20,000 nt of DNA from an uncultured virus (IMG/VR IMGVR_UViG_3300021958_000051) (Duplodnaviria; Heunggongvirae; Uroviricota; Caudoviricetes). The stretch spans positions 52,234 to 72,233 of the IMG/VR virus record IMGVR_UViG_3300021958_000051; one strand, written 5' to 3'. A program made the translations under genes and the position numbers. Below the pieces are notes generated by a model that was given only the letters and a program-made list of their open reading frames with translations, made no database searches and had not been told where the DNA came from. Below are positions 9,170 to 20,000 of the stretch, in pieces (position 1 is the stretch's first letter; the number at the start of each line of letters is the position of its first letter).

Positions 9170-9772
9170 ATGCTTTGGACATTTAATACAGATCAAAGAA
9201 TTAAAGAATGTGAGTTAAGAGACAACCCAATTATTATCCGGGTAAATAAATTTGACGAACAAAGCGCACAAGAGTTTTGCACTAACATGTCTCTTGCGCA
9301 TTGTACAGGACAAGAAATCATACCTATCGTAATCGATTCATATGGTGGTCAAGTTTATAGCCTAATGAGGATGATTGGGGCAATTAAAGCATCTCGACTT
9401 CCTGTTGCAACAATTGTAGAAGGTAAAGCAATGAGTTGTGGGGCTATCTTGTTTTCTTTTGGCGAAGAAGGCAGAAGATATATGGATCCTCATGCAACTG
9501 TCATGATTCATGATGTTTCGTCTGGTGCAATTGGAAAAATTGAAGAAATCAAAGCAAACGCTAAAGAGTCAGAAAGGCTAAACGATCAAGTTTACGAAAT
9601 GATGGCACGTAATTGCGGTCAACCTGATGAATTCTTTAAAAATAAAGTCCATGAAATTGGTCATGCAGATCTCTATGTGCCACCAAAAGATGCAAAAGAA
9701 TGGAATCTGGCAAATCACCTAAGAATGCCAAAATTTGATATCAATATCAAAGTTGAGATGCAGTTTTCATAA
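9170..9772 (+). CDS. clpP: ClpP-family serine protease, proteolytic subunit
   Basis: IDSYGGQV (SPGG equivalent), GKAMSCGAIL (catalytic Ser), VMIHD (catalytic His), HADLY (likely catalytic Asp); strong RBS. Confidence 0.88.
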   Translation: MLWTFNTDQRIKECELRDNPIIIRVNKFDEQSAQEFCTNMSLAHCTGQEIIPIVIDSYGGQVYSLMRMIGAIKASRLPVATIVEGKAMSCGAILFSFGEEGRRYMDPHATVMIHDVSSGAIGKIEEIKANAKESERLNDQVYEMMARNCGQPDEFFKNKVHEIGHADLYVPPKDAKEWNLANHLRMPKFDINIKVEMQFS

Positions 9773-9815
9773 TAAATTAATCATATCCTCCTAATTATAA
9801 TAAAAGGGAGGAAAC

Positions 9816-10268
9816 ATGATTTCTGATTTATTATTAACATATATTGCTTGTACAAAAGCAACAGAAATGTGGTTCCATGCAGCTCATCACGTTACCAAAG
9901 GTAAAGGGTTTGCAGGGGACCACAATATTTTATATTCAAAAATATACGAATTGTTAGGCGATGACTATGATTCTTTAGTTGAAAAAGGTATCGGTCTTTT
10001 TGATGAAGAACAACTTGCTTGTCCTATATTAATATCTCAAATAGCATCTAAATTGTTGTCAAATTTCCAGTCTCCTGTTAATTGTAGTGATCATGAAATA
10101 GCAACAACAGGTTTACAGGTTTTAATTGATCATTTGCAAAGCTTAGAATACTTGTACGATGAGCTTGAAAATAGTGAATCGTTTACTATTGGATTTGATG
10201 ATCTTTTAGCTTCGATGGCAAATGAATATGAGAGATATATATACATGTTAAAACAACGTATTAAGTAG
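9816..10268 (+). CDS. Dps/ferritin-like four-helix-bundle protein
   Basis: HAAHHVTKGKGFAGDH..Y..IY....DDYDSLVE matches the Dps pattern H-W-x3-G-x2-F-x3-H...D-x3-E; C-terminal YERYIYML; RBS GGGAGG. Confidence 0.8.
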   Translation: MISDLLLTYIACTKATEMWFHAAHHVTKGKGFAGDHNILYSKIYELLGDDYDSLVEKGIGLFDEEQLACPILISQIASKLLSNFQSPVNCSDHEIATTGLQVLIDHLQSLEYLYDELENSESFTIGFDDLLASMANEYERYIYMLKQRIK

Positions 10269-10276
10269 GATAATAT

Positions 10277-11176
10277 ATGGCAATAGATAAGGTATTTTAT
10301 AACGAAGCTTCTGCAGCTAAATTAGGTTGGACACCTGAATGGTTTGGAGTCGAAGAATTTGATCAAAAGCTTGTAAAGGCAATTAGAGAATGGCAAAAAA
10401 AAGCAGGAATTACTCCTGATGGAATGTGTGGGCCTGGAACCCATAGAAGAATTATGGCAGAAAGATTGGCCAATATTGATGACTATGAGCCTGATTTAAT
10501 TCTTGAAAAAGATGAAAATTTTATTGTTCATCAAGGTAATTTTATTCCTATTGATTGGAAAAAAGTTGTTCTCTGGTCAGAACCCAATGGTTTGGCAATT
10601 GAAAAAGCTTATACACCTTATTTTGAAAAAAGAAAAATTAACATGTTTGTTAATCACTGGGACGTCTGTTTAGACTCTAAATCATGCGCAAGAGTTTTAA
10701 ATAATCGCGGCGTCTCAGTTCATTTCTGTATTGATAATGACGGAACAATATATCAACTACTTGATACAAATCATGCAGCGTGGCATGGAAGCACTAGAAA
10801 AGTTAATCATAGTTCAATTGGTGTAGAAATTGCCAATGCTTATTATCCAAAATATCAGTCTTGGTATAAGAAGAAAGGATTTGGAGAAAGACCTCTTATG
10901 GAAAATGCTGTTGTTCATGGAGGAAAACTTGATCCTTTTACTTGGTTTTATCCGGAACAAATTAAAGCCCTTCAGGCTTTATGGAAAGCAGTTCATGATG
11001 CAACAGGCATACCTTACGAATGTCCTGTAGACGCTAATGGAAATACATCAACAACAGTAGATAGAAAAGTAGCTGGCGGAACTTTTAAAGGTTTTGTTAG
11101 TCATTATCACGTGACAAAAAAGAAAATAGACTGTGCAGGATTAGATATCAAAAACTTGCTTAATGAAATTAAATAA
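10277..11176 (+). CDS. Endolysin: N-terminal peptidoglycan-binding domain plus Zn-dependent N-acetylmuramoyl-L-alanine amidase (Amidase_2)
   Basis: AIREWQKKAGITPDGMCGPGT (PG_binding_1-like); VNHWD, SVHFCIDNDGTIYQL, AWH, N..SIGVEI, SHYHV...KIDCAG (His/His/Cys Zn ligands as in T7 lysozyme-type amidases). Confidence 0.9.
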   Translation: MAIDKVFYNEASAAKLGWTPEWFGVEEFDQKLVKAIREWQKKAGITPDGMCGPGTHRRIMAERLANIDDYEPDLILEKDENFIVHQGNFIPIDWKKVVLWSEPNGLAIEKAYTPYFEKRKINMFVNHWDVCLDSKSCARVLNNRGVSVHFCIDNDGTIYQLLDTNHAAWHGSTRKVNHSSIGVEIANAYYPKYQSWYKKKGFGERPLMENAVVHGGKLDPFTWFYPEQIKALQALWKAVHDATGIPYECPVDANGNTSTTVDRKVAGGTFKGFVSHYHVTKKKIDCAGLDIKNLLNEIK

Positions 11177-11321
11177 AAGCAAGTCTAGGTTATAATTATT
11201 AAACGAGTAAATATTTGCTCATTTAAGTTTAGTTTGTTGAGTCATGAATGTTGCAGTTAGTCTTAGTTGAAAATATTAGTATGCGATGTTTTCTAAAATA
11301 TTTTTTAGGCAGAGGTAGATA

Positions 11322-14300
11322 GTGCCTAAAATTAATAGAAGAAAACTAAAAACTAATGACAAAATAATTGTAAAAGATAATTTCACAGGGGTTATAAGAA
11401 AAATAATCTTTCCCCACGAAACAGATTTTGGCATTGAAGGCGATTCAGAATTTGCTGAAAAAATTAGATTTTTTAACGGACTTAGTGGATCATTAACAAA
11501 CTTGACAGATGGTACGTCTTATTTAATTGCCGGTGCTGGAACTTCAATAACAACCGGTTCAAATGGCGCAATAACAATTGAAGTAGATGGAACTGGTGGT
11601 TCTGGTACAATAACAGGTGTCACGGCAGGATCTGGATTATCAGGTGGAGGAATATCTGGTGGAGTAACTCTTGATTTAGCCTTTGATGAACTATCATCAG
11701 TTACACCAACATTAAATGATACTTTAGCAACATTAGATTCTGACGAAACAACTCATCAGAGAACAACAATATCAGCATTGGCTACAATCCAAGCGGGGTC
11801 TGGTATTGGTTCAGATTCTGGGCAATTGATAGCTGACTTAAATAGTTTGACAGCAGGAACTGTTGTAGGTGCTGATTCTATTGCCTTTATTGATGCAGAT
11901 GATAATATAACAAAAAAAGATACAATAGGAGATTTTTTAACAGCGATCGCCGGGCCAGGTTTAGACGTATCAAGTAATCAATTAGTACCAGATTTAATTG
12001 AAGTAAGTTCTGCTGTAGTTGATGAGTCTGCTGATTATATTGTCATATTAGATTCAGATGATTCTTTTGCAACTAAAAGAGAAAGTATTGTTGATTTTAT
12101 GTCTGCAGTTGCAGGAACAGGACTTGCAGCTACATCCGGTCAATTATCAGTTGATTCTTCTGTTGTACCATTATTATCTACAGATAATACATTTACTGGC
12201 AATAATATATTTTCAAATGGTCTAACCGGATCATTACAAGAAGTTAGTGCAGGCAATCCTTATCTTTTAGCAGGTACAAATATTGTATTAAGTACTGCTT
12301 CAAATGGTCAAGTTACAATATCAGCAAGTGGTATTGCAGCCGGAGCCGCTGGATCTGATACTGAAATACAATTTAACGATGGTGGATCTTCATTAGGCTC
12401 AGATTCGACTTTTGTATTTGATAAAAATTCAAATACGTTAACGGTCCCTAACATGTCTGGATCTTTGACACAATTATCAGATGGAACATCTTATTTAATT
12501 CAATCCGGAGGAATTAGATTAACAACAGAATCAAATGGCTCAATTACAATATTTTCACCTGATTTTAACGTTGGGAATGGTTTAGATAGGAATGGAGATA
12601 CTTTAAGTGCAAACCTTAGGACAAATGGTGGACTAGAATTCTTTACTAATGAAATTCAAATTGATGATTCGATTGTTGCAACAATTAGTGGGTCTACTTT
12701 TACCGGCGCAGTTAATTTTAATCAAGGGTTGAGTGGCTCATTAACAAAATTAACAGATGGTTCATCTTATATTCAGGCAGGCGCAAACATACTTATAACG
12801 TCAGCATCGAATGGCGCTATTACAATAGCAGCAGCTACTGGCGGCGATTTAGGAACAATCACCGGCGTCACCGCCGGAACAGGTTTGACAGGCGGAGGTG
12901 CTAGCGGTATTGTAACGTTAAATATTGATAATTCTGTTGTTGCAACATTAACCGGTTCTATTTTTTCTGGAGACGTTGTAGCACAATCTGGTTTATCTGG
13001 GTCTTTACAAAGACTTTCAGATGGAACAACTAGATATTTGGTAGGTACAGGAAGTATAACTGTTTATACAGCTTCAAATGGTCAAGTTGTTGTAAGCGGA
13101 AGTGAATATACAGCCGGCACAGGTTTAAATTTAAATGGATATCAATTTTCAATAAATGATTCTGTTGTTGCTACATTAACCGGTTCACAATTTTCTGGAA
13201 ACATAGGCGTAACTGGGTCGATTGAAGCAACGTCATTTTTTAGCGGGTCAATGTTTAAAGCACCTGTTGTGTCAGGATCATTAACACAATTGCATGACGG
13301 AACTTCCTACCTAATAGCCGGTGCCAATATTTCAATAACAACCCAATCAAATGGTTCAATTATTATCACAGGTTCAGCTTCCGGTGGTGGAGGAGGCTCG
13401 ATCGGAGTTGTCTCCGGGTCAACTTCAATTGGGACAGTTTCAACGATCGCAGCATCAGACGGTTTTATTCTTAATGACGAAGGTAGTGGAAGAGCTGCCT
13501 TAACATCTTCAATTGGTATTGCTGAGGATGGCGATTACACAGATGGATTATTTACAGATTTCACGCCACAAACTCGATTAGGAATTGCAATTGACCGTTT
13601 TAATGAAATACTTAAACTTTTGGCACCTTCTCCTGCACCTGACCTGGATGATGTTGATGTTGATGTGGATGGAACAGATGCTTATCTTTCTTTTGGAACA
13701 TCAAATGACTTGGAAGGGGAAGGAACGCCTTATTACTCTGTTGATACAACAGCCGGTTTTTCTGCAGTCGATGTTAATGGTTTGTATCAAACAGCAACAA
13801 ACGGCAATAATTTAAGAGCAGCAATTTTTGCTGGAGCAACAAACATTGTAGGTGATCTAAATGAAGACGTTTCAGCTGATGGCACAAATTATCCGGAAAA
13901 TTCTTTTGGTAATGCAGATCAAGGTGAATTAAGACTAGAAATAAATGGAGCTGTAATTCACACAGTAGATTTAACTTCATTTACTGGCACCGGTGACCCA
14001 GGTAGCGGAACTGCTGTTACAAATTCAACTGGATCATGCTTTACTAATTTTTCTACTGCAGCCGATGGAACTTTAGACAATGGAACTGCATTTCCTAATT
14101 TTCAACATCGCACAGGAAAATATAAAATAATTGCAGCTGATCAAAGACAAGGATGGAATTATGCAAGAGTAATTCATGTTTATGGTTCAACAACAATTAC
14201 AACAAACTATATTGAATGGGTTAATGATGCTGATGCAAATGCATTGGCTGCTAGCGAAAACTCTTTGACATTTACCGGCGCAGGTTCTTTACACTTGTCA

Positions 14301-17084
14301 GGTATAGAATACTTTACCAACGGGTCAGCTGAATATTTAGTAAAAGTTGATAATGCGTATCGCAATATTTATGACACAACAAATATTTCATTTACTACCT
14401 CAACTGGTGGTTCTTTAAATACATCACCTAGTTTTTCAATTTCAGCACAATCAAAACCTACAATCGATACCGGTGCAGGAGAAGATCATACCAAAGCTCT
14501 GCACATCACAGGATCAGCATCAATAACAGCGACACAAATGTTGAGTGGTTCAATTACTGCTGGTGTCAGCGTAACGCATCCTTTGAAATCAAACCTGTCA
14601 AATTCAGGACAAGCTTCTGATGAAGGTATCCTTATATATAACCGGTCAAATACCTCAACAACATTAGTTGAAACGTTTTTAAGAGAAGATTATCGAATCA
14701 TATCAGGAGCTTACGATACACAGGCAAGCTTGACAGACGTTGGAAATGTATGGGATTCAACTGTACATATGACTGCATCAAATGGAGATCATACAAACGG
14801 ATTACAGTTTTTTAACCAACGTTTATATTCACCTACTAATACATTAAATAGCGGAGACTTTAGTACATTCTCAAACGGGCCCAGTGAAAACCCTGATTAT
14901 TCAGGAATTACAGGTCAGCGAACATTTTACAGGTGGTTTAGGAATACAACAGGATCGACCCAATATGATTTTTCAATTGCAATCAATGGATCCGGAACAA
15001 CCATTGTAAATGCTGCAACTGCCTTGAATAGCGGCCGAATTAGAGTTTTTGTAAAGTTTCCCTCAGATGGAACCAGAGAAACAGGATGGTTAGATCTAGC
15101 AACAGAATTTGTGCTTGATAGTTATGCAGATAATGATGGTGCTCACACAGCAAATGGAGGTTTATCTTTTGACTCAACCTTAAATGCAACAAATTACGTA
15201 ACTTTAGGTACAGTTGGTATTGGCAATAACGAATACATTGGATTAAGAATTGAAGCAGATGAAAGCTGGACAGGTTATGTAAGTCAAATCACAGTTTCTT
15301 TTGGTGCCGGAACAGGAACAATCACTGCAATACCTGATTTAGACGATATTGATTGTAATGATGACGGAACAGATTGCAATCTTTCATTTGGGTCTTCTAA
15401 GTCAATTACAGGTTATACTAATTCATCAACCGCAGCTGGCTTCACCGCGGTTGATCTTAACGGACTTTACCAAACAGCAACAAGCGGAAACAACTTAAGG
15501 CAGTCTGTGTTTCAACTCGATAGAATTGTCGAAGGTGATTTAAATGAAGATGTATCAGCAGTATCACCTGACTATGTTGCTAATAGCTTCTCAGATGCGA
15601 ACAGTGGTTCTCTGGCGCTTGAGGTTAATGGAAATACGGTTCATACTGTTGAAATAACAGGATCCTATAATCTAGTTGGTTCCGGAAACCCTGGGAGTGG
15701 AACCGGGACAAGCTTAAATGGGAATGGATCGGGTTTCTTTGATTTAAGTGTTTGGGCGCCTGCTGAATTTGATAATGATGTTCCTTATTATTTAGAAATA
15801 TATAGAACAGGCAAGTTTAGAGTTCATACTTCTGACCAAAGGAACGGTTGGAATTATGCACGTGTAGTTCACAGTGGATCTTGGGGTGCACGAGCAACAA
15901 ATTATGTTGAATGGGTAAATGATAATAATGCCGATGCACTAGGTTCAGCCGGCGTAGGAATAACATCTTTTGGTGATGATACATTTGCATATTCATCAGG
16001 TGTTAAGTTTTTTACATCGCCTTCTGGAAGTATTCTTTCTCGTATCTCAAACATTTATAAAAACGTTTATTCAGATAGCTCGAGCGCAATATCATTTATT
16101 AATCTTACAAATGCAACAGGTGCAAGAATAATTCAATCAGGATCAGGTTTATCATCAACAAAAAATACTGCATCTTCAACAGACTCATTGCAAACACTAA
16201 ATACAAATACAGATTCTCAAAACGAATTATTACACGTGTCTGGAACGGTTAATTTTAGTCAGTCAAAATCTTTACCTGGTGATTTTACAACTGCATATAA
16301 TTGTGCAGGTGGAATGAGATTTTTACATCCTTTTAAAACAACTCTAGACTTATCGACTCAAACCGCAACTGATCTTTTAGTTTGGACCCCTTCAGATACA
16401 TCATCTGTTAATTATAACGAGTATTTTACTGATGAAACCCATAGATTAGTTAGTGGATCATATGACACGCAAGCTAGCGTAACAGATTCCGGAAATGATT
16501 GGGATAGTGAAAATTCAATTAACGATACAGGTTCGTATCCTGCCTATGCAACAGGCATGCTGGTTTACGATACTTACATAATGTCTCCCAAGAAAGGTGG
16601 CTCATCTGGCGATTTTAGAAATAATGATGACGGTGGTTCAATTGAAGGCCCTGGCGGGAATCCAAATTATTCGACGCTGACAAACGGGACAAGAGAATAT
16701 TATAGAGGTTTTCTAAATCCAACAACAAATGATTTAGCAAGAATTACAATAATTCTTTATGGGTCTGGGACAATTGTCCCACTAACCACTTCCTTGGGGT
16801 CAAATGGAAACGTTCATGTAGAACTTAAAATCCCAGGTAAAACTGGATTTTTAGATTTAGGAACAGCATCTGCTGGATCTGGTAATATAAATGACGGTGA
16901 TGGTTGTCTTTTTGGTGATCCGGATGCAACAATAGATTCTGGTGGTGCAACAAACGTTTGTACGTTTAATGGAGCAACTGTTGATGGAACAGCCTCAGGA
17001 CAAGAGTATTTTGTAATAAAGATATCTGCTAGTGAAAACTGGACAGGTTATATTGACAGAATACAAGTGACGTGGAGTGGTTAA
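11322..17084 (+). CDS. 1920-aa giant virion structural / tail-fibre-like protein with internal repeats
   Basis: GTG start with GAGG RBS. Gly/Ser/Thr/Asp-rich, with TITGVTAGxGLxGG fibre-type motifs, six SGSL..L.DG.SY repeats and a tandem duplication of about 560-580 aa. Confidence 0.75.
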   Translation: MPKINRRKLKTNDKIIVKDNFTGVIRKIIFPHETDFGIEGDSEFAEKIRFFNGLSGSLTNLTDGTSYLIAGAGTSITTGSNGAITIEVDGTGGSGTITGVTAGSGLSGGGISGGVTLDLAFDELSSVTPTLNDTLATLDSDETTHQRTTISALATIQAGSGIGSDSGQLIADLNSLTAGTVVGADSIAFIDADDNITKKDTIGDFLTAIAGPGLDVSSNQLVPDLIEVSSAVVDESADYIVILDSDDSFATKRESIVDFMSAVAGTGLAATSGQLSVDSSVVPLLSTDNTFTGNNIFSNGLTGSLQEVSAGNPYLLAGTNIVLSTASNGQVTISASGIAAGAAGSDTEIQFNDGGSSLGSDSTFVFDKNSNTLTVPNMSGSLTQLSDGTSYLIQSGGIRLTTESNGSITIFSPDFNVGNGLDRNGDTLSANLRTNGGLEFFTNEIQIDDSIVATISGSTFTGAVNFNQGLSGSLTKLTDGSSYIQAGANILITSASNGAITIAAATGGDLGTITGVTAGTGLTGGGASGIVTLNIDNSVVATLTGSIFSGDVVAQSGLSGSLQRLSDGTTRYLVGTGSITVYTASNGQVVVSGSEYTAGTGLNLNGYQFSINDSVVATLTGSQFSGNIGVTGSIEATSFFSGSMFKAPVVSGSLTQLHDGTSYLIAGANISITTQSNGSIIITGSASGGGGGSIGVVSGSTSIGTVSTIAASDGFILNDEGSGRAALTSSIGIAEDGDYTDGLFTDFTPQTRLGIAIDRFNEILKLLAPSPAPDLDDVDVDVDGTDAYLSFGTSNDLEGEGTPYYSVDTTAGFSAVDVNGLYQTATNGNNLRAAIFAGATNIVGDLNEDVSADGTNYPENSFGNADQGELRLEINGAVIHTVDLTSFTGTGDPGSGTAVTNSTGSCFTNFSTAADGTLDNGTAFPNFQHRTGKYKIIAADQRQGWNYARVIHVYGSTTITTNYIEWVNDADANALAASENSLTFTGAGSLHLSGIEYFTNGSAEYLVKVDNAYRNIYDTTNISFTTSTGGSLNTSPSFSISAQSKPTIDTGAGEDHTKALHITGSASITATQMLSGSITAGVSVTHPLKSNLSNSGQASDEGILIYNRSNTSTTLVETFLREDYRIISGAYDTQASLTDVGNVWDSTVHMTASNGDHTNGLQFFNQRLYSPTNTLNSGDFSTFSNGPSENPDYSGITGQRTFYRWFRNTTGSTQYDFSIAINGSGTTIVNAATALNSGRIRVFVKFPSDGTRETGWLDLATEFVLDSYADNDGAHTANGGLSFDSTLNATNYVTLGTVGIGNNEYIGLRIEADESWTGYVSQITVSFGAGTGTITAIPDLDDIDCNDDGTDCNLSFGSSKSITGYTNSSTAAGFTAVDLNGLYQTATSGNNLRQSVFQLDRIVEGDLNEDVSAVSPDYVANSFSDANSGSLALEVNGNTVHTVEITGSYNLVGSGNPGSGTGTSLNGNGSGFFDLSVWAPAEFDNDVPYYLEIYRTGKFRVHTSDQRNGWNYARVVHSGSWGARATNYVEWVNDNNADALGSAGVGITSFGDDTFAYSSGVKFFTSPSGSILSRISNIYKNVYSDSSSAISFINLTNATGARIIQSGSGLSSTKNTASSTDSLQTLNTNTDSQNELLHVSGTVNFSQSKSLPGDFTTAYNCAGGMRFLHPFKTTLDLSTQTATDLLVWTPSDTSSVNYNEYFTDETHRLVSGSYDTQASVTDSGNDWDSENSINDTGSYPAYATGMLVYDTYIMSPKKGGSSGDFRNNDDGGSIEGPGGNPNYSTLTNGTREYYRGFLNPTTNDLARITIILYGSGTIVPLTTSLGSNGNVHVELKIPGKTGFLDLGTASAGSGNINDGDGCLFGDPDATIDSGGATNVCTFNGATVDGTASGQEYFVIKISASENWTGYIDRIQVTWSG
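11469..13370 (+). repeat. Six dispersed ~37-aa protein repeats (GLSGSLTxLxDGTSYLIAGxxIxITTxSNGxITI)
   Basis: Copies begin near nt 11469, 12210, 12447, 12717, 12981 and 13260, read directly from the translation. Confidence 0.85.
13638..17081 (+). repeat. Tandem intragenic duplication of a ~560-580-aa module
   Basis: Copy 1 13638-15305 (PDLDDVD...WTGYVSQITVSFG), copy 2 15333-17081 (PDLDDID...WTGYIDRIQVTWSG). Shared colinear motifs: TAAGFxAVDxNGLYQTAT, GDLNEDVSA, DQRxGWNYARV, TNYxEWVND, SGxYDTQAS. Confidence 0.9.
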
Positions 17085-18619
17085 TGGCAGGTAAAACCAA
17101 TACGTCGGCAACGTTTTTTGCTCAGAAAAAATTATTAGGTAAAGCTCATACCTCAAATCTTAAAACAGATGGTGAAGAACTTATTGGATCGAATATCCAA
17201 ACTGCGACATCACTTGTTTTTGGTGAAAAAATACCTTTGGCACCTGAAAGAACACTTTATCTTTTGCAATCTGCTTCTAATGATGACAATGCAACAGTAG
17301 AATATATACAATTCAATTTAGATGTATTGACAGGAACAACTTATGATGCAAATAATACAAATCCTGATGGAGGTGCAGGTTCTGATACAGGAGAAGATTC
17401 TCAAGTCGCAGGTCCTCATGCATATAAGTTTAGATTACCTTCTGACTATTCAAGTAGTACTTCAAATCCTAGGGCAGGCAATGGATTTTTTAATGATAGC
17501 GCACTCGTTCATGAAACATTAGGGATTGTTCAGTTAGTTCCGCCTTTCTTTTCGCAAGCTGCTCCTAATCCTTACATTGTTAAAATATATCAAGACGACG
17601 GTGGCGGCGGAGTTGGTAGTGAAATTCCGCTTCTTGATAATATTGATTGGAATGTAGACTTTTATAATGGGATTCTTTTTCTGCAAGACTATAATGCTTC
17701 AAAAATTCCAGCTTTCGCACGTGCATTTGCATATGTCGGAAAAATGGCAGAAGAAGTTATTGCATCTGGGTCTGGTGGATCTGGTGGCGGGGGTGGCTCT
17801 GGTGATGCTGCTGCAGAATATGTTTTAACAACTGCAACCGGTTCTTTGCCAAATGCCAAAGTTATTGAAGCAGGCACAGGTATCACAATCGTTACCGGTT
17901 CAAATTCAATTACAATATCATCATCAACATCAGCAATTAACGGTAGAGAAAAAACAACTTATTTTGTAACGTCATCACATACAGCCAATTCTGCTTTAAA
18001 CATATCTGGGCCGGATTTTTCAACTGTTCAATATGATACAAATAAAATTGATATTAATCTAAACGGTCAATTGCTGCATACTGGATCTTCTTCACAAGTA
18101 ATTGCAGGAGAAAGAGACTATTACTTATCCAATACTGGAAGTATTGTCTTTGGGTTTGATTTGGAAACAGATGACATTGTTGATACGATCATTAGTGTTG
18201 TAGGAGGTGGAAGCGGAGGAGGCGGCGGTGAAACAGCAGCATCTTATCTTGTTCTCGCAAATACAGGGTCTCTATCAAATGAACGAGCAATATCAATCGG
18301 TGCAGGATTAACTGCAACAGACGGCGGTGCTAACGGCAATTATTCTATTGTCAATAATAATGGCAATTATGTTTTTAACGAATATTTAGGACAAGGCAAT
18401 GGAACAAATACTTTATTTACACTCGATAATACACCAACAGCAAATAAAAACATTTCAATATTTGTTAACGGACTTTTGCAAATGCCGTCGACAGATATCA
18501 CGTCAGCACCTTTTCAAGACTATTCTGTTACCGGATCAAACATATACTTTACAACAGCATCTTTGCCTGATGCCGGCACAATTATTATGGCAAATTATAC
18601 AACAAACGACGCAATTTAA
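17084..18619 (+). CDS. Virion structural / tail-associated protein (~511 aa)
   Basis: ATG 17084 overlaps the upstream stop (TAATG) with GGAG RBS at 17074-17077. Gly-rich linkers, two A.YL.L...GSL.N.R/K.I..G.G repeats, and C-terminal tail-fibre-type domain GNGTNTLFTL...IFVNGLLQ...DYSVTGSNIYF...P..G..I...Y. Confidence 0.72.
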   Translation: MAGKTNTSATFFAQKKLLGKAHTSNLKTDGEELIGSNIQTATSLVFGEKIPLAPERTLYLLQSASNDDNATVEYIQFNLDVLTGTTYDANNTNPDGGAGSDTGEDSQVAGPHAYKFRLPSDYSSSTSNPRAGNGFFNDSALVHETLGIVQLVPPFFSQAAPNPYIVKIYQDDGGGGVGSEIPLLDNIDWNVDFYNGILFLQDYNASKIPAFARAFAYVGKMAEEVIASGSGGSGGGGGSGDAAAEYVLTTATGSLPNAKVIEAGTGITIVTGSNSITISSSTSAINGREKTTYFVTSSHTANSALNISGPDFSTVQYDTNKIDINLNGQLLHTGSSSQVIAGERDYYLSNTGSIVFGFDLETDDIVDTIISVVGGGSGGGGGETAASYLVLANTGSLSNERAISIGAGLTATDGGANGNYSIVNNNGNYVFNEYLGQGNGTNTLFTLDNTPTANKNISIFVNGLLQMPSTDITSAPFQDYSVTGSNIYFTTASLPDAGTIIMANYTTNDAI

Positions 18620-18636
18620 GGACAAGTGAGATAATT

Positions 18637-18864
18637 ATGAATATGAACACATTTCAAACATCAGATATTGGCATAGCCGCATATGTTATGATGAAAGGCC
18701 TTAAGTTAAAACAAGCGTCTAGAGGTCATAACGGCCGGTTTAGTTTTGTTTTCGATGATTCGCAAAATTTAGGAAAAGGATACGCTGTGGATTATGTAAA
18801 TTCAGAATCTGCCAAATTTGATGCCCATATGAAGAACCTAAAAAATATCTTATATAAATCTTAA
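18637..18864 (+). CDS. Small basic protein, DUF5659-like
   Basis: FQTSDIGIAAYVMMKGLKL....G...GRFSFVFDD pattern resembles DUF5659 proteins as I recall them (not searched). Start could be 18637 or 18643. Confidence 0.6.
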   Translation: MNMNTFQTSDIGIAAYVMMKGLKLKQASRGHNGRFSFVFDDSQNLGKGYAVDYVNSESAKFDAHMKNLKNILYKS

Positions 18865-18976
18865 TGACTCGAATATATAAGATCATTAGTCAAGTTAGTA
18901 GTTTCGTCCAGTTGATCACAGTATGCGCATAAAAGTAAAGTTTTTTACGAAACAAATTTAACAAAGGAGGAGTCAA

Positions 18977-20000
18977 ATGGCTTCAAGAACACAATTAAGA
19001 TTAGGACAATTGACCGGTTCATTTGGAACCGGCGCAATTAATGACCAAATCTCAGCTGCAGCGACAGGATCGATTGCAGTCACAGATTTAGAAGGAGTAT
19101 TATCTCATCTTGCAGGCGCAATTAAGCGTATTCACGGTGAAGATAGTTTCTCACAAAATGCGGCAGGTGAATTTGCAGTTTCTGTAGTACCTTCATCTGC
19201 AGATGGTGCAGCTCTCGGTAGCGCAACAAACGAATGGTCAGATCTTTATCTTGCCGATGGTGGTGTTATTAACCTCGGTAATGATCAAGACGTAACCATT
19301 ACACACGTTGCTGATACAGGCGTATTATTAAATGGTTCATCTCAAATTCAATTAAGAGATTCAGCAATCTTTTTAAATTCATCCGGAGACGGTGTTTTAG
19401 ATATTGAAGCAGATACCACTATTAATATTGGTAATGACAACTCAGGTGTTGCTATTTCTATTGGTCATTCAACCTCAGAAGTAACTGTTAATGATAATCT
19501 TACTGTAACAGGTGATTTAACAGTTAACGGTACAACTGTAACCTTAGACACAACTAACCTTCTTGTTGAAGATCCAATTATTGTTTTAAACAAAAATAAT
19601 TCTTCTGCAAATGGCCAAGGTGGTATTGCTATTGAACAAGGTGGATCAACAAGCGATTTAGTTTTTGGTCGCGTTGCTAATGATACTTGGGGTGTTGGTA
19701 CTAAAGACACAGCAGGCGGTACAGCAACAACAGTTGCTGATATGACATTGACTACTTTCCGTGCTGGAAAGCTTGAAATTGATGGTGCAAGTGATACAAT
19801 TGACGTGGTTAACTCCGATCTCACAGCAACCGCCGCTGGTAATTTTAAAGTAGATGCTGCTACTGACATCATTCTTGATGCAGATGGTGCTGATATTTTC
19901 TTTGATGATGCAGGCACACGTTTTGGTGGCATCAATATGAACGCTGGGGCGAGTTATCTGATTTTATCATCATCAGCTTGTAATAATATTGCTTTTGCTT
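18977..20000 (+). CDS. Tail-fibre-like structural protein, 3' truncated by the window (absent from the ORF track)
   Basis: Strong RBS AAAGGAGGAG, ATG 18977, open to the window end: MASRTQLRLGQLTGS...LGSATNEWSDLYL...NLTVTGDLTVNGTTVTLDTTNLLVEDPIIVLN...DIILDADGAD, motifs typical of phage fibre proteins. Confidence 0.82.
   Translation, partial: MASRTQLRLGQLTGSFGTGAINDQISAAATGSIAVTDLEGVLSHLAGAIKRIHGEDSFSQNAAGEFAVSVVPSSADGAALGSATNEWSDLYLADGGVINLGNDQDVTITHVADTGVLLNGSSQIQLRDSAIFLNSSGDGVLDIEADTTINIGNDNSGVAISIGHSTSEVTVNDNLTVTGDLTVNGTTVTLDTTNLLVEDPIIVLNKNNSSANGQGGIAIEQGGSTSDLVFGRVANDTWGVGTKDTAGGTATTVADMTLTTFRAGKLEIDGASDTIDVVNSDLTATAAGNFKVDAATDIILDADGADIFFDDAGTRFGGINMNAGASYLILSSSACNNIAFA

Follow-up and report, generated by a model that had tools for sequence, protein, structure and literature searches.

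The stretch of DNA analysed here (the window, 20,000 nucleotides) is the end of a 72-kb (72,233-base) contig that is 30% complete and derives from a large myophage. The contig carries what we take to be portal, capsid, neck, two sheath, SSB, RecA, helicase, ribonucleotide reductase, ClpP and amidase genes, the labels coming from the list of open reading frames (ORFs) and Pfam matches, with several assigned from the sequence itself. Its capsid protein is closest among cultured phages to that of Flavobacterium phage Immuto (45%), and a host clue is absent, since none of 600 pattern matches in a scan of GTDB genomes was confirmed. A ClpP-like protease, a 150-aa phrog_3636 protein that is presumably Dps-like, and an amidase with a peptidoglycan-binding domain (window 9170-11176) lie upstream of a fibre operon, as they do in most clade-1 relatives. 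The first gene of this operon encodes a 1,920-aa fibre-like protein, the last a small protein of the DUF5659 family, and a second fibre-like gene follows (Table 1). Leader 1 heads ~7.5 kb of coding sequence and leader 2 a single 1.7-kb gene, which in the near-identical contig L055 encodes 559 aa and is followed by a hairpin and a T run. An earlier note had placed giant tail-fibre genes behind both leaders; the description fits the 1,920-aa product but not the 559-aa one, and the tail-fibre label is based on composition, no fibre family having been matched in Pfam or PHROG. The DUF5659 gene is, as that note had it, the only small gene of the fibre cluster inside the window, but in L055 further small genes follow the fibre gene.

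Table 1. Features of the fibre region in window coordinates
Feature	Position	Strand	Basis
Late-promoter-like motif (ATAnTTA class), head of giant-fibre operon	11192..11198	+	Position; promoter role putative
Repeat tract 1 (AGTT/GTT), leader of 1,920-aa fibre-like gene	11226..11280	+	AGT density, shuffle test, relatives
Giant Gly/Ser/Thr-rich fibre-like protein, 1,920 aa	11322..17084	+	ORF list; GSTAN fraction 0.51
511-aa fibre-associated protein	17084..18619	+	ORF list; anchor of with/without-DUF5659 comparison
DUF5659 protein, 75 aa, basic, alpha/beta, candidate RNA-binding factor	18637..18864	+	Pfam, AlphaFold2 model, pI
Late-promoter-like motif of downstream fibre gene	18873..18879	+	Same position in relatives; function putative
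Repeat tract 2, including clade core GTTGA	18888..18941	+	AGT density; RNA fold z -0.39
Strong Shine-Dalgarno sequence (AAGGAGGAG)	18962..18971	+	Sequence
RTQ-type fibre-like gene	18977..20000, cut by window end	+	ORF list, near-identical contig L055

The DUF5659 gene is single copy on the contig and encodes 75 residues, or 73 from the second ATG, with a pI of 9.5 (K/R 10 vs D/E 6). Its by-eye family assignment was borne out by Pfam PF18903 (E 3.7e-9, 36.8 bits against a gathering cut-off of 23.6, profile positions 1-74 of 75), the only Pfam match up to E 1; there was no NCBIfam family, no PHROG family up to E 0.1, and nothing below E 0.39 in a PDB sequence search with a 133-row profile. A literature search for the name DUF5659 found no paper, and PF18903 has no function on record. 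The homologues comprise 246 close matches and 437 clusters at 50% identity, and among 50,697 records no cultured phage had the gene, one metagenomic record being matched. Across 113 diverse homologues T8, A14, F37, S56 and D62 are conserved at 92-97%, three aromatic positions at 97-99%, and positions 66 and 69 are K or R in 97% and 99%. The alpha/beta character proposed from the sequence is upheld by an AlphaFold2 model (pLDDT 90) with a strand-helix-strand-strand-helix-helix order and helices at 11-19, 46-54 and 57-74. Structure searches, which the earlier note had proposed for a nucleic-acid-binding fold, gave no clear match to RRM, KH, winged helix, PC4 or LAGLIDADG folds, the best values of any match for the monomer being E 0.21 with Foldseek and Z 5.2 (rmsd 2.9, 74 aligned). 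Among predicted structures of viruses the nearest neighbours are other DUF5659 members, from sipho- and podoviruses, and an Atlas structure search returned DUF5659 clusters only and, with these skipped, leads at a score of 0.75. Head-to-tail duplications of the domain (15 among the 150 representatives listed) suggest a probable dimer; one of them is predicted to fold at pTM 0.84, and a search of solved structures with the tandem model likewise gave nothing clear (best Z 4.1). A 1,459-aa protein (P0147) has 12 stretches matching the DUF5659 profile, possibly a repeat artefact.

The repeat leaders that flank the operon are well defined in the window. AGT occurs at 11182, 11206, 11226, 11231, 11240, 11255, 11259, 11265 and 11278 of the 145-nt gap 11177-11321, and at 18888, 18893, 18897, 18900, 18910, 18920, 18934 and 18939 (+ 18971) of the 112-nt gap 18865-18976, the latter lying just downstream of the DUF5659 gene. 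The existence of such leaders was thereby confirmed, as the two tracts, both non-coding, are the top two 70-nt AGT windows of the whole 72,233-base contig (8 and 7). When 25 leaders were tested against shuffles for [AC]GT[TC], both tracts ranked first at p 0.003, a third leader before the tail sheath gene reached p 0.003 likewise, and the reverse-strand control gave 0. Tract 2 begins 8 nt past the promoter-like motif and stops ~25 nt short of the Shine-Dalgarno sequence (SD); tract 1 lies 40-95 nt ahead of a fair SD and does not overlap it. A sigma-70 scan gave 25 sites vs 32.5 expected, none inside the leaders, and contigs from three RNA runs reach only parts of 19371-19834, none of them extending to either leader or to the DUF5659 gene. 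Two other candidates in these leaders were set aside: a conserved structure as the main element, for which long-range pairing occurs in five near relatives but with single-sequence z of -1.3 to +1.4 and unfavourable covariation, and a 24-codon upstream ORF (11248-11322) with its TAG overlapping the fibre GTG, which has indels in one relative and lies in another frame in L007. That ORF starts just past an ancestral-looking GTTGAGT site, and the 1,920-aa fibre of the window has apparently been extended at its N-terminus and acquired a new SD.

Relatives define the element more closely. From 236 loci, 128 were kept (at least 450 bases downstream, protein identity below 90%), and 96 of these non-redundant DUF5659 loci have a leader of at least 55 nt and a fibre-like gene no more than two genes downstream. 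The motif GT[CT]N1-3GTT, defined on these leaders and chosen after inspecting them, is found in 83 of the 96, where shuffles predict 16.6; of the remaining intergenic regions in these loci, 48 of 231 have it, with 33.6 expected. A later fibre query, whose loci overlap the first set in part, has it in 15 of 16 DUF5659-adjacent leaders (3.7 expected). AGT tracts are present as the earlier note said, but the conserved core is GTT/GTY and not AGT. Periodicity peaks at lags 5, 10 and 15 in the leaders and is missing from other intergenic regions, with a GTY spacing mode of 5; the DUF5659-linked leaders are unstructured (median fold z -0.25 to -0.39). The first motif lies a median of 8 nt behind a late-promoter-like heptamer, and three related contigs have ATA.TTA in 56 of their 182 leaders vs 27.2 expected. 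Clade 1 favours AGTT and GTTGA, and clade 2 favours CGTTCGTT or GTCCAGTT, then other 5-nt repeats.

Near relatives repeat the arrangement at both leaders. The leader 1 and 2 counterparts rank first in G003, G006 and G007 and tie for first in G001 with the first motif; with it the G004 leaders are unremarkable, and both G004 fibre leaders hold three copies of the refined motif. The leader of L059 is identical to the window's at 81 of 111 aligned bases, a figure inflated by gapped alignment of A+T-rich DNA, and the gene at 6 of 20 four-fold sites; the third-position row of L061, being out of frame, was left out of this comparison. In leader 1 of L008, L009, L011, L081 and L085 the tract abuts the start codon and the SD is at most GAG, L011 having nine tandem TAGTT units, and by our tally at least two motifs occur in 10 of 15 giant-fibre leaders of the window's N-terminal type. 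A further fibre gene behind the first one too has a long repeat-bearing leader in L237:8516-8621, L248:8502-8837 and the leader at G004:70527-74516.

Approached from the fibre, a search returned 35 RTQ-fibre loci, of which 24 are non-redundant, and all 24 have DUF5659 36-250 nt upstream. The protein with its leader occurs behind fibre, neck or major capsid genes and ahead of at least 14 fibre N-terminal families. The most direct comparison is anchored on the 511-aa gene, where 70 non-redundant loci divide into 50 with DUF5659 in the slot, 19 with none in view and 1 ambiguous. The 50 comprise 43 with the motif, 6 with a leader but no motif and 1 with no leader, vs 1, 17 and 1 respectively among the 19, whose downstream fibre is only weakly alike at its N-terminus (profile scores 1.5-12.4 bits) and is a putative equivalent by position. 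This comparison supports the link between protein and leader. G017 (89% complete) and G015 (78%) keep giant-fibre (38-39%) and 511-aa (42-44%) orthologues in the same order; hmmsearch --max found no DUF5659 in either, the motif is absent from all their fibre leaders and both tracts are missing. In six of six contigs of this kind the profile search gave no DUF5659 match, three of the six being about half complete; for G016, the one fully complete DUF5659-less relative, the absence is that of a profile match. Most of the 19 loci have a stable 5' hairpin in place of the motif, placed right behind the late-promoter motif in the MAYKFQ-type fibre leader (L394, L397, L398, L406, L408, L419, L421, L428, L434 and others), and the median fold z of the first 60 nt past the promoter motif is -3.3 in 15 DUF5659-less leaders vs +0.6 in 71 linked ones.

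The explanation tentatively preferred, at a little short of an even chance, is that DUF5659 is an RNA-binding dimer that coats the leaders, with the result that the mRNA of the downstream fibre is protected and expression of the giant-fibre operon is damped. A small and probably dimeric ssRNA-binding protein would be made from the last gene of the late fibre operon, and several copies would settle on the unstructured GUY/GUU repeats, at a step of ~5 nt, of both flanking leaders. On leader 2 the protein coat would shield the 5' end and keep a high-copy fibre message alive; it would most likely take over the role of the 5' hairpin of DUF5659-less relatives, because tract 2 begins where the 5' end presumably lies and does not reach the strong SD. 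Tract 1 of most relatives runs into a weak ribosome-binding site, so that binding there would damp translation and create a feedback loop on the operon encoding DUF5659, the net outcome being a set ratio of the two fibre types. We read the tracts as RNA sites because they are on the sense strand inside the presumed transcript, vary in number, keep to the start codon in leader 1 and give way to a hairpin in loci without the gene. DUF5659 is the most likely reader because it is the only constant gene, and the direction of the effects (5'-end protection downstream, repression of its own operon) is suggested by tract position.

The main rival, possible though less probable, makes DUF5659 a head/neck or fibre assembly factor that is inherited in one cassette with repeats read by the host (a ribosomal protein S1-type enhancer or an RNA chaperone) or serving just to prevent the leader from folding. 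It is favoured by the place where DUF5659 is most deeply conserved, between the major capsid gene and head-tail adaptor genes of phages with 35-68% G+C, a setting that has no such leader. In G010 (332 kb, 99% complete) and G012 (87 kb, terminal repeats) the single-copy gene lies between capsid and head-tail adaptor genes, as in other high-G+C phages, and in these two genomes motif-rich leaders are found neither next to the gene nor ahead of structural genes; LR756511.1 has it in yet another context. In all, 32 of the 128 loci fall outside the leader-plus-fibre rule, a few as threshold or truncation misses. L375, L383 and L418 have the gene and a giant fibre without the motif upstream; in G009 the motif is ahead of a fibre that lies two genes away. 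Of 44 DUF5659 genes that are themselves preceded by a leader, only 4 have the motif in it. The co-occurrence with repeat tracts that the earlier note asked for largely holds, in three upstream contexts, with at least 14 fibre families and with both elements absent where relatives retain the genes on either side, but some homologues, two near-complete genomes included, lack a repeat leader, an outcome that the note had counted against its proposal, and for the PF18903 family the link applies to a large part and not to all. Independent contrasts are also few: the DUF5659-less loci amount to about two lineages, and a quick tree has 4 changes of which well-supported branches force only 1, so that gene and leader may be co-inherited as one cassette. 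Leaders that are C-poor in one clade and C-rich in another are, moreover, what is expected if only unstructuredness were selected. Against this rival, each of the three groups has the GUY-N-GUU core in excess of shuffles of matched composition, and the motif is absent ahead of other fibre and capsid genes of these genomes that are served by separate promoters. A host reader leaves the loss of both tracts without the gene unexplained, and the near-invariant basic residues of DUF5659 also count against the assembly-factor reading.

If DUF5659 were instead a DNA-binding late-transcription regulator acting on direct repeats just past the late promoter, which is improbable, the opening of the tract ~8 nt past the promoter-like motif, the lag-10 periodicity of clade-2 leaders (one helical turn) and a pseudo-dimer with basic C-terminal helices would be accounted for. 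Against this, the main step is 4-6 nt, copy number is variable and inverted symmetry is absent; leader 1 tracts of relatives are pinned to the start codon and not the promoter, and the substitute in DUF5659-less relatives is a hairpin, an RNA-level feature.

Very improbable is binding of the repeats by another cassette protein, either unassembled fibre or an adjacent small helical protein, with DUF5659 a partner or bystander. An acidic 100-170 aa protein does adjoin DUF5659 in 53 clade-2 loci (L012-L134; 43 upstream, 10 downstream), is absent from G015 and G017 and is a possible partner; other small neighbours occur in clades 1 and 3, and T4 gp32 offers a precedent for autogenous control by a product (PMC3014915). 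The neighbours form unrelated clusters, however, and the fibres fall into 14 N-terminal families, DUF5659 being the sole constant. Least credible is a processive antitermination system (a nut-like loading site for long fibre operons), an antiterminator being one of the roles raised in the earlier note: leader 1 does precede ~7.5 kb of coding sequence, and clade-2 leaders resemble Rho loading sites, which are C-rich and unstructured, but antitermination is unsupported because neither leader has a terminator-like site, leader 2 serves a single gene with its own hairpin and T run, clade-1 leaders are G-rich over C, and neither a structured loading site (z -0.39, -0.60) nor an Rfam match was found.

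Control by a coat of DUF5659 would work like that of TRAP and T4 gp32, and the protein is a member of neither family. TRAP is all-beta, whereas the DUF5659 model has three helices, the leader core is GUU/GUY, and a ligand or ring is not indicated. Pfam to E 1, NCBIfam and a PDB profile search gave no sequence match to the TRAP/MtrB family; set against a TRAP target of (G/U)AG triplets spaced by 2-3 nt, TAG, GAG and AAG occur in clade 1 and the ~5-nt step is present, the enriched core being GTT/GTY in all groups. TRAP (MtrB) of Bacillus subtilis is a tryptophan-dependent 11-mer ring that reads (G/U)AG (PMC10327191), and the likeness consists in a small protein, a short-repeat array with a step of ~5 nt, leader RNA and translational effects, with binding by DUF5659 presumed. 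T4 gp32 acts on an unstructured, repeat-bearing or A+U-rich stretch over the ribosome-binding site (PMC3014915), and the tract overlaps that site in leader 1 of most relatives. Unlike the targets of gp32 and RegA, those linked to DUF5659 are late fibre genes, the tracts of leader 2 and of the window's leader 1 do not overlap the SD, and no pseudoknot is seen; homology to gp32 or RegA was not found (PHROG to E 0.1, PDB sequences). The nearest cultured phages by capsid, Immuto and Microcystis phage Mel-JY01, share a gp23-type major capsid protein (45-47% identity over the aligned part) but have no DUF5659 and no motif ahead of fibre-like genes; a few of their intergenic regions, before small non-fibre genes, reach p <=0.01 with a simpler motif.

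That a large group of jumbo phages, all uncultured, pairs a small basic DUF5659 protein with the repeat leaders of fibre messages suggests, from comparative sequence, a new type of RNA-binding regulator. Whoever reads the leader, the conserved repeat leader and its exchange for a 5' hairpin in relatives constitute a cis element undescribed in literature and Rfam searches. Were the regulator confirmed, DUF5659 (437 clusters) would have its first function, late structural genes of many uncultured phages would come under post-transcriptional control, and a programmable-looking RNA binder of 75 aa that targets a short repeat would become available. The wider proposition, which is unlikely as a whole, is that DUF5659 is a widespread repeat-reading RNA-binding family of unsolved fold, serving here as a protein cap that replaces a 5' stem-loop on the fibre mRNA and as a repressor of its own operon through the same repeats, a switch made of one protein that would set the fibre stoichiometry of the virion.

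Several leaders elsewhere have related features. Clade-2 leaders after DUF5659 (for example L020, L022, L024, L047, L123) contain C/T-rich 5- or 10-nt repeats with the anti-SD-like words CACCTC and CTCCTAT, which could possibly pair with the fibre SD as a translational switch. Shorter AGTT-rich leaders at G000:C1:31908-31959 and 20212-20269 and at G003:102362-102442, ahead of the first tail sheath gene, a signal-peptide-like protein and a 154-aa gene, are possible further targets. The SSB gene that ends at window 240, which we take to be gp32-like, has a leader (G000:C1:51587-51675, ~560-650 bases before the window start) with an (A/C)ATTAA array of sharp 7-nt period and 31 matches at lag 7. 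This separate array resembles the operator of UUAA(A) repeats through which T4 gene 32 is autogenously controlled (PMC3014915).
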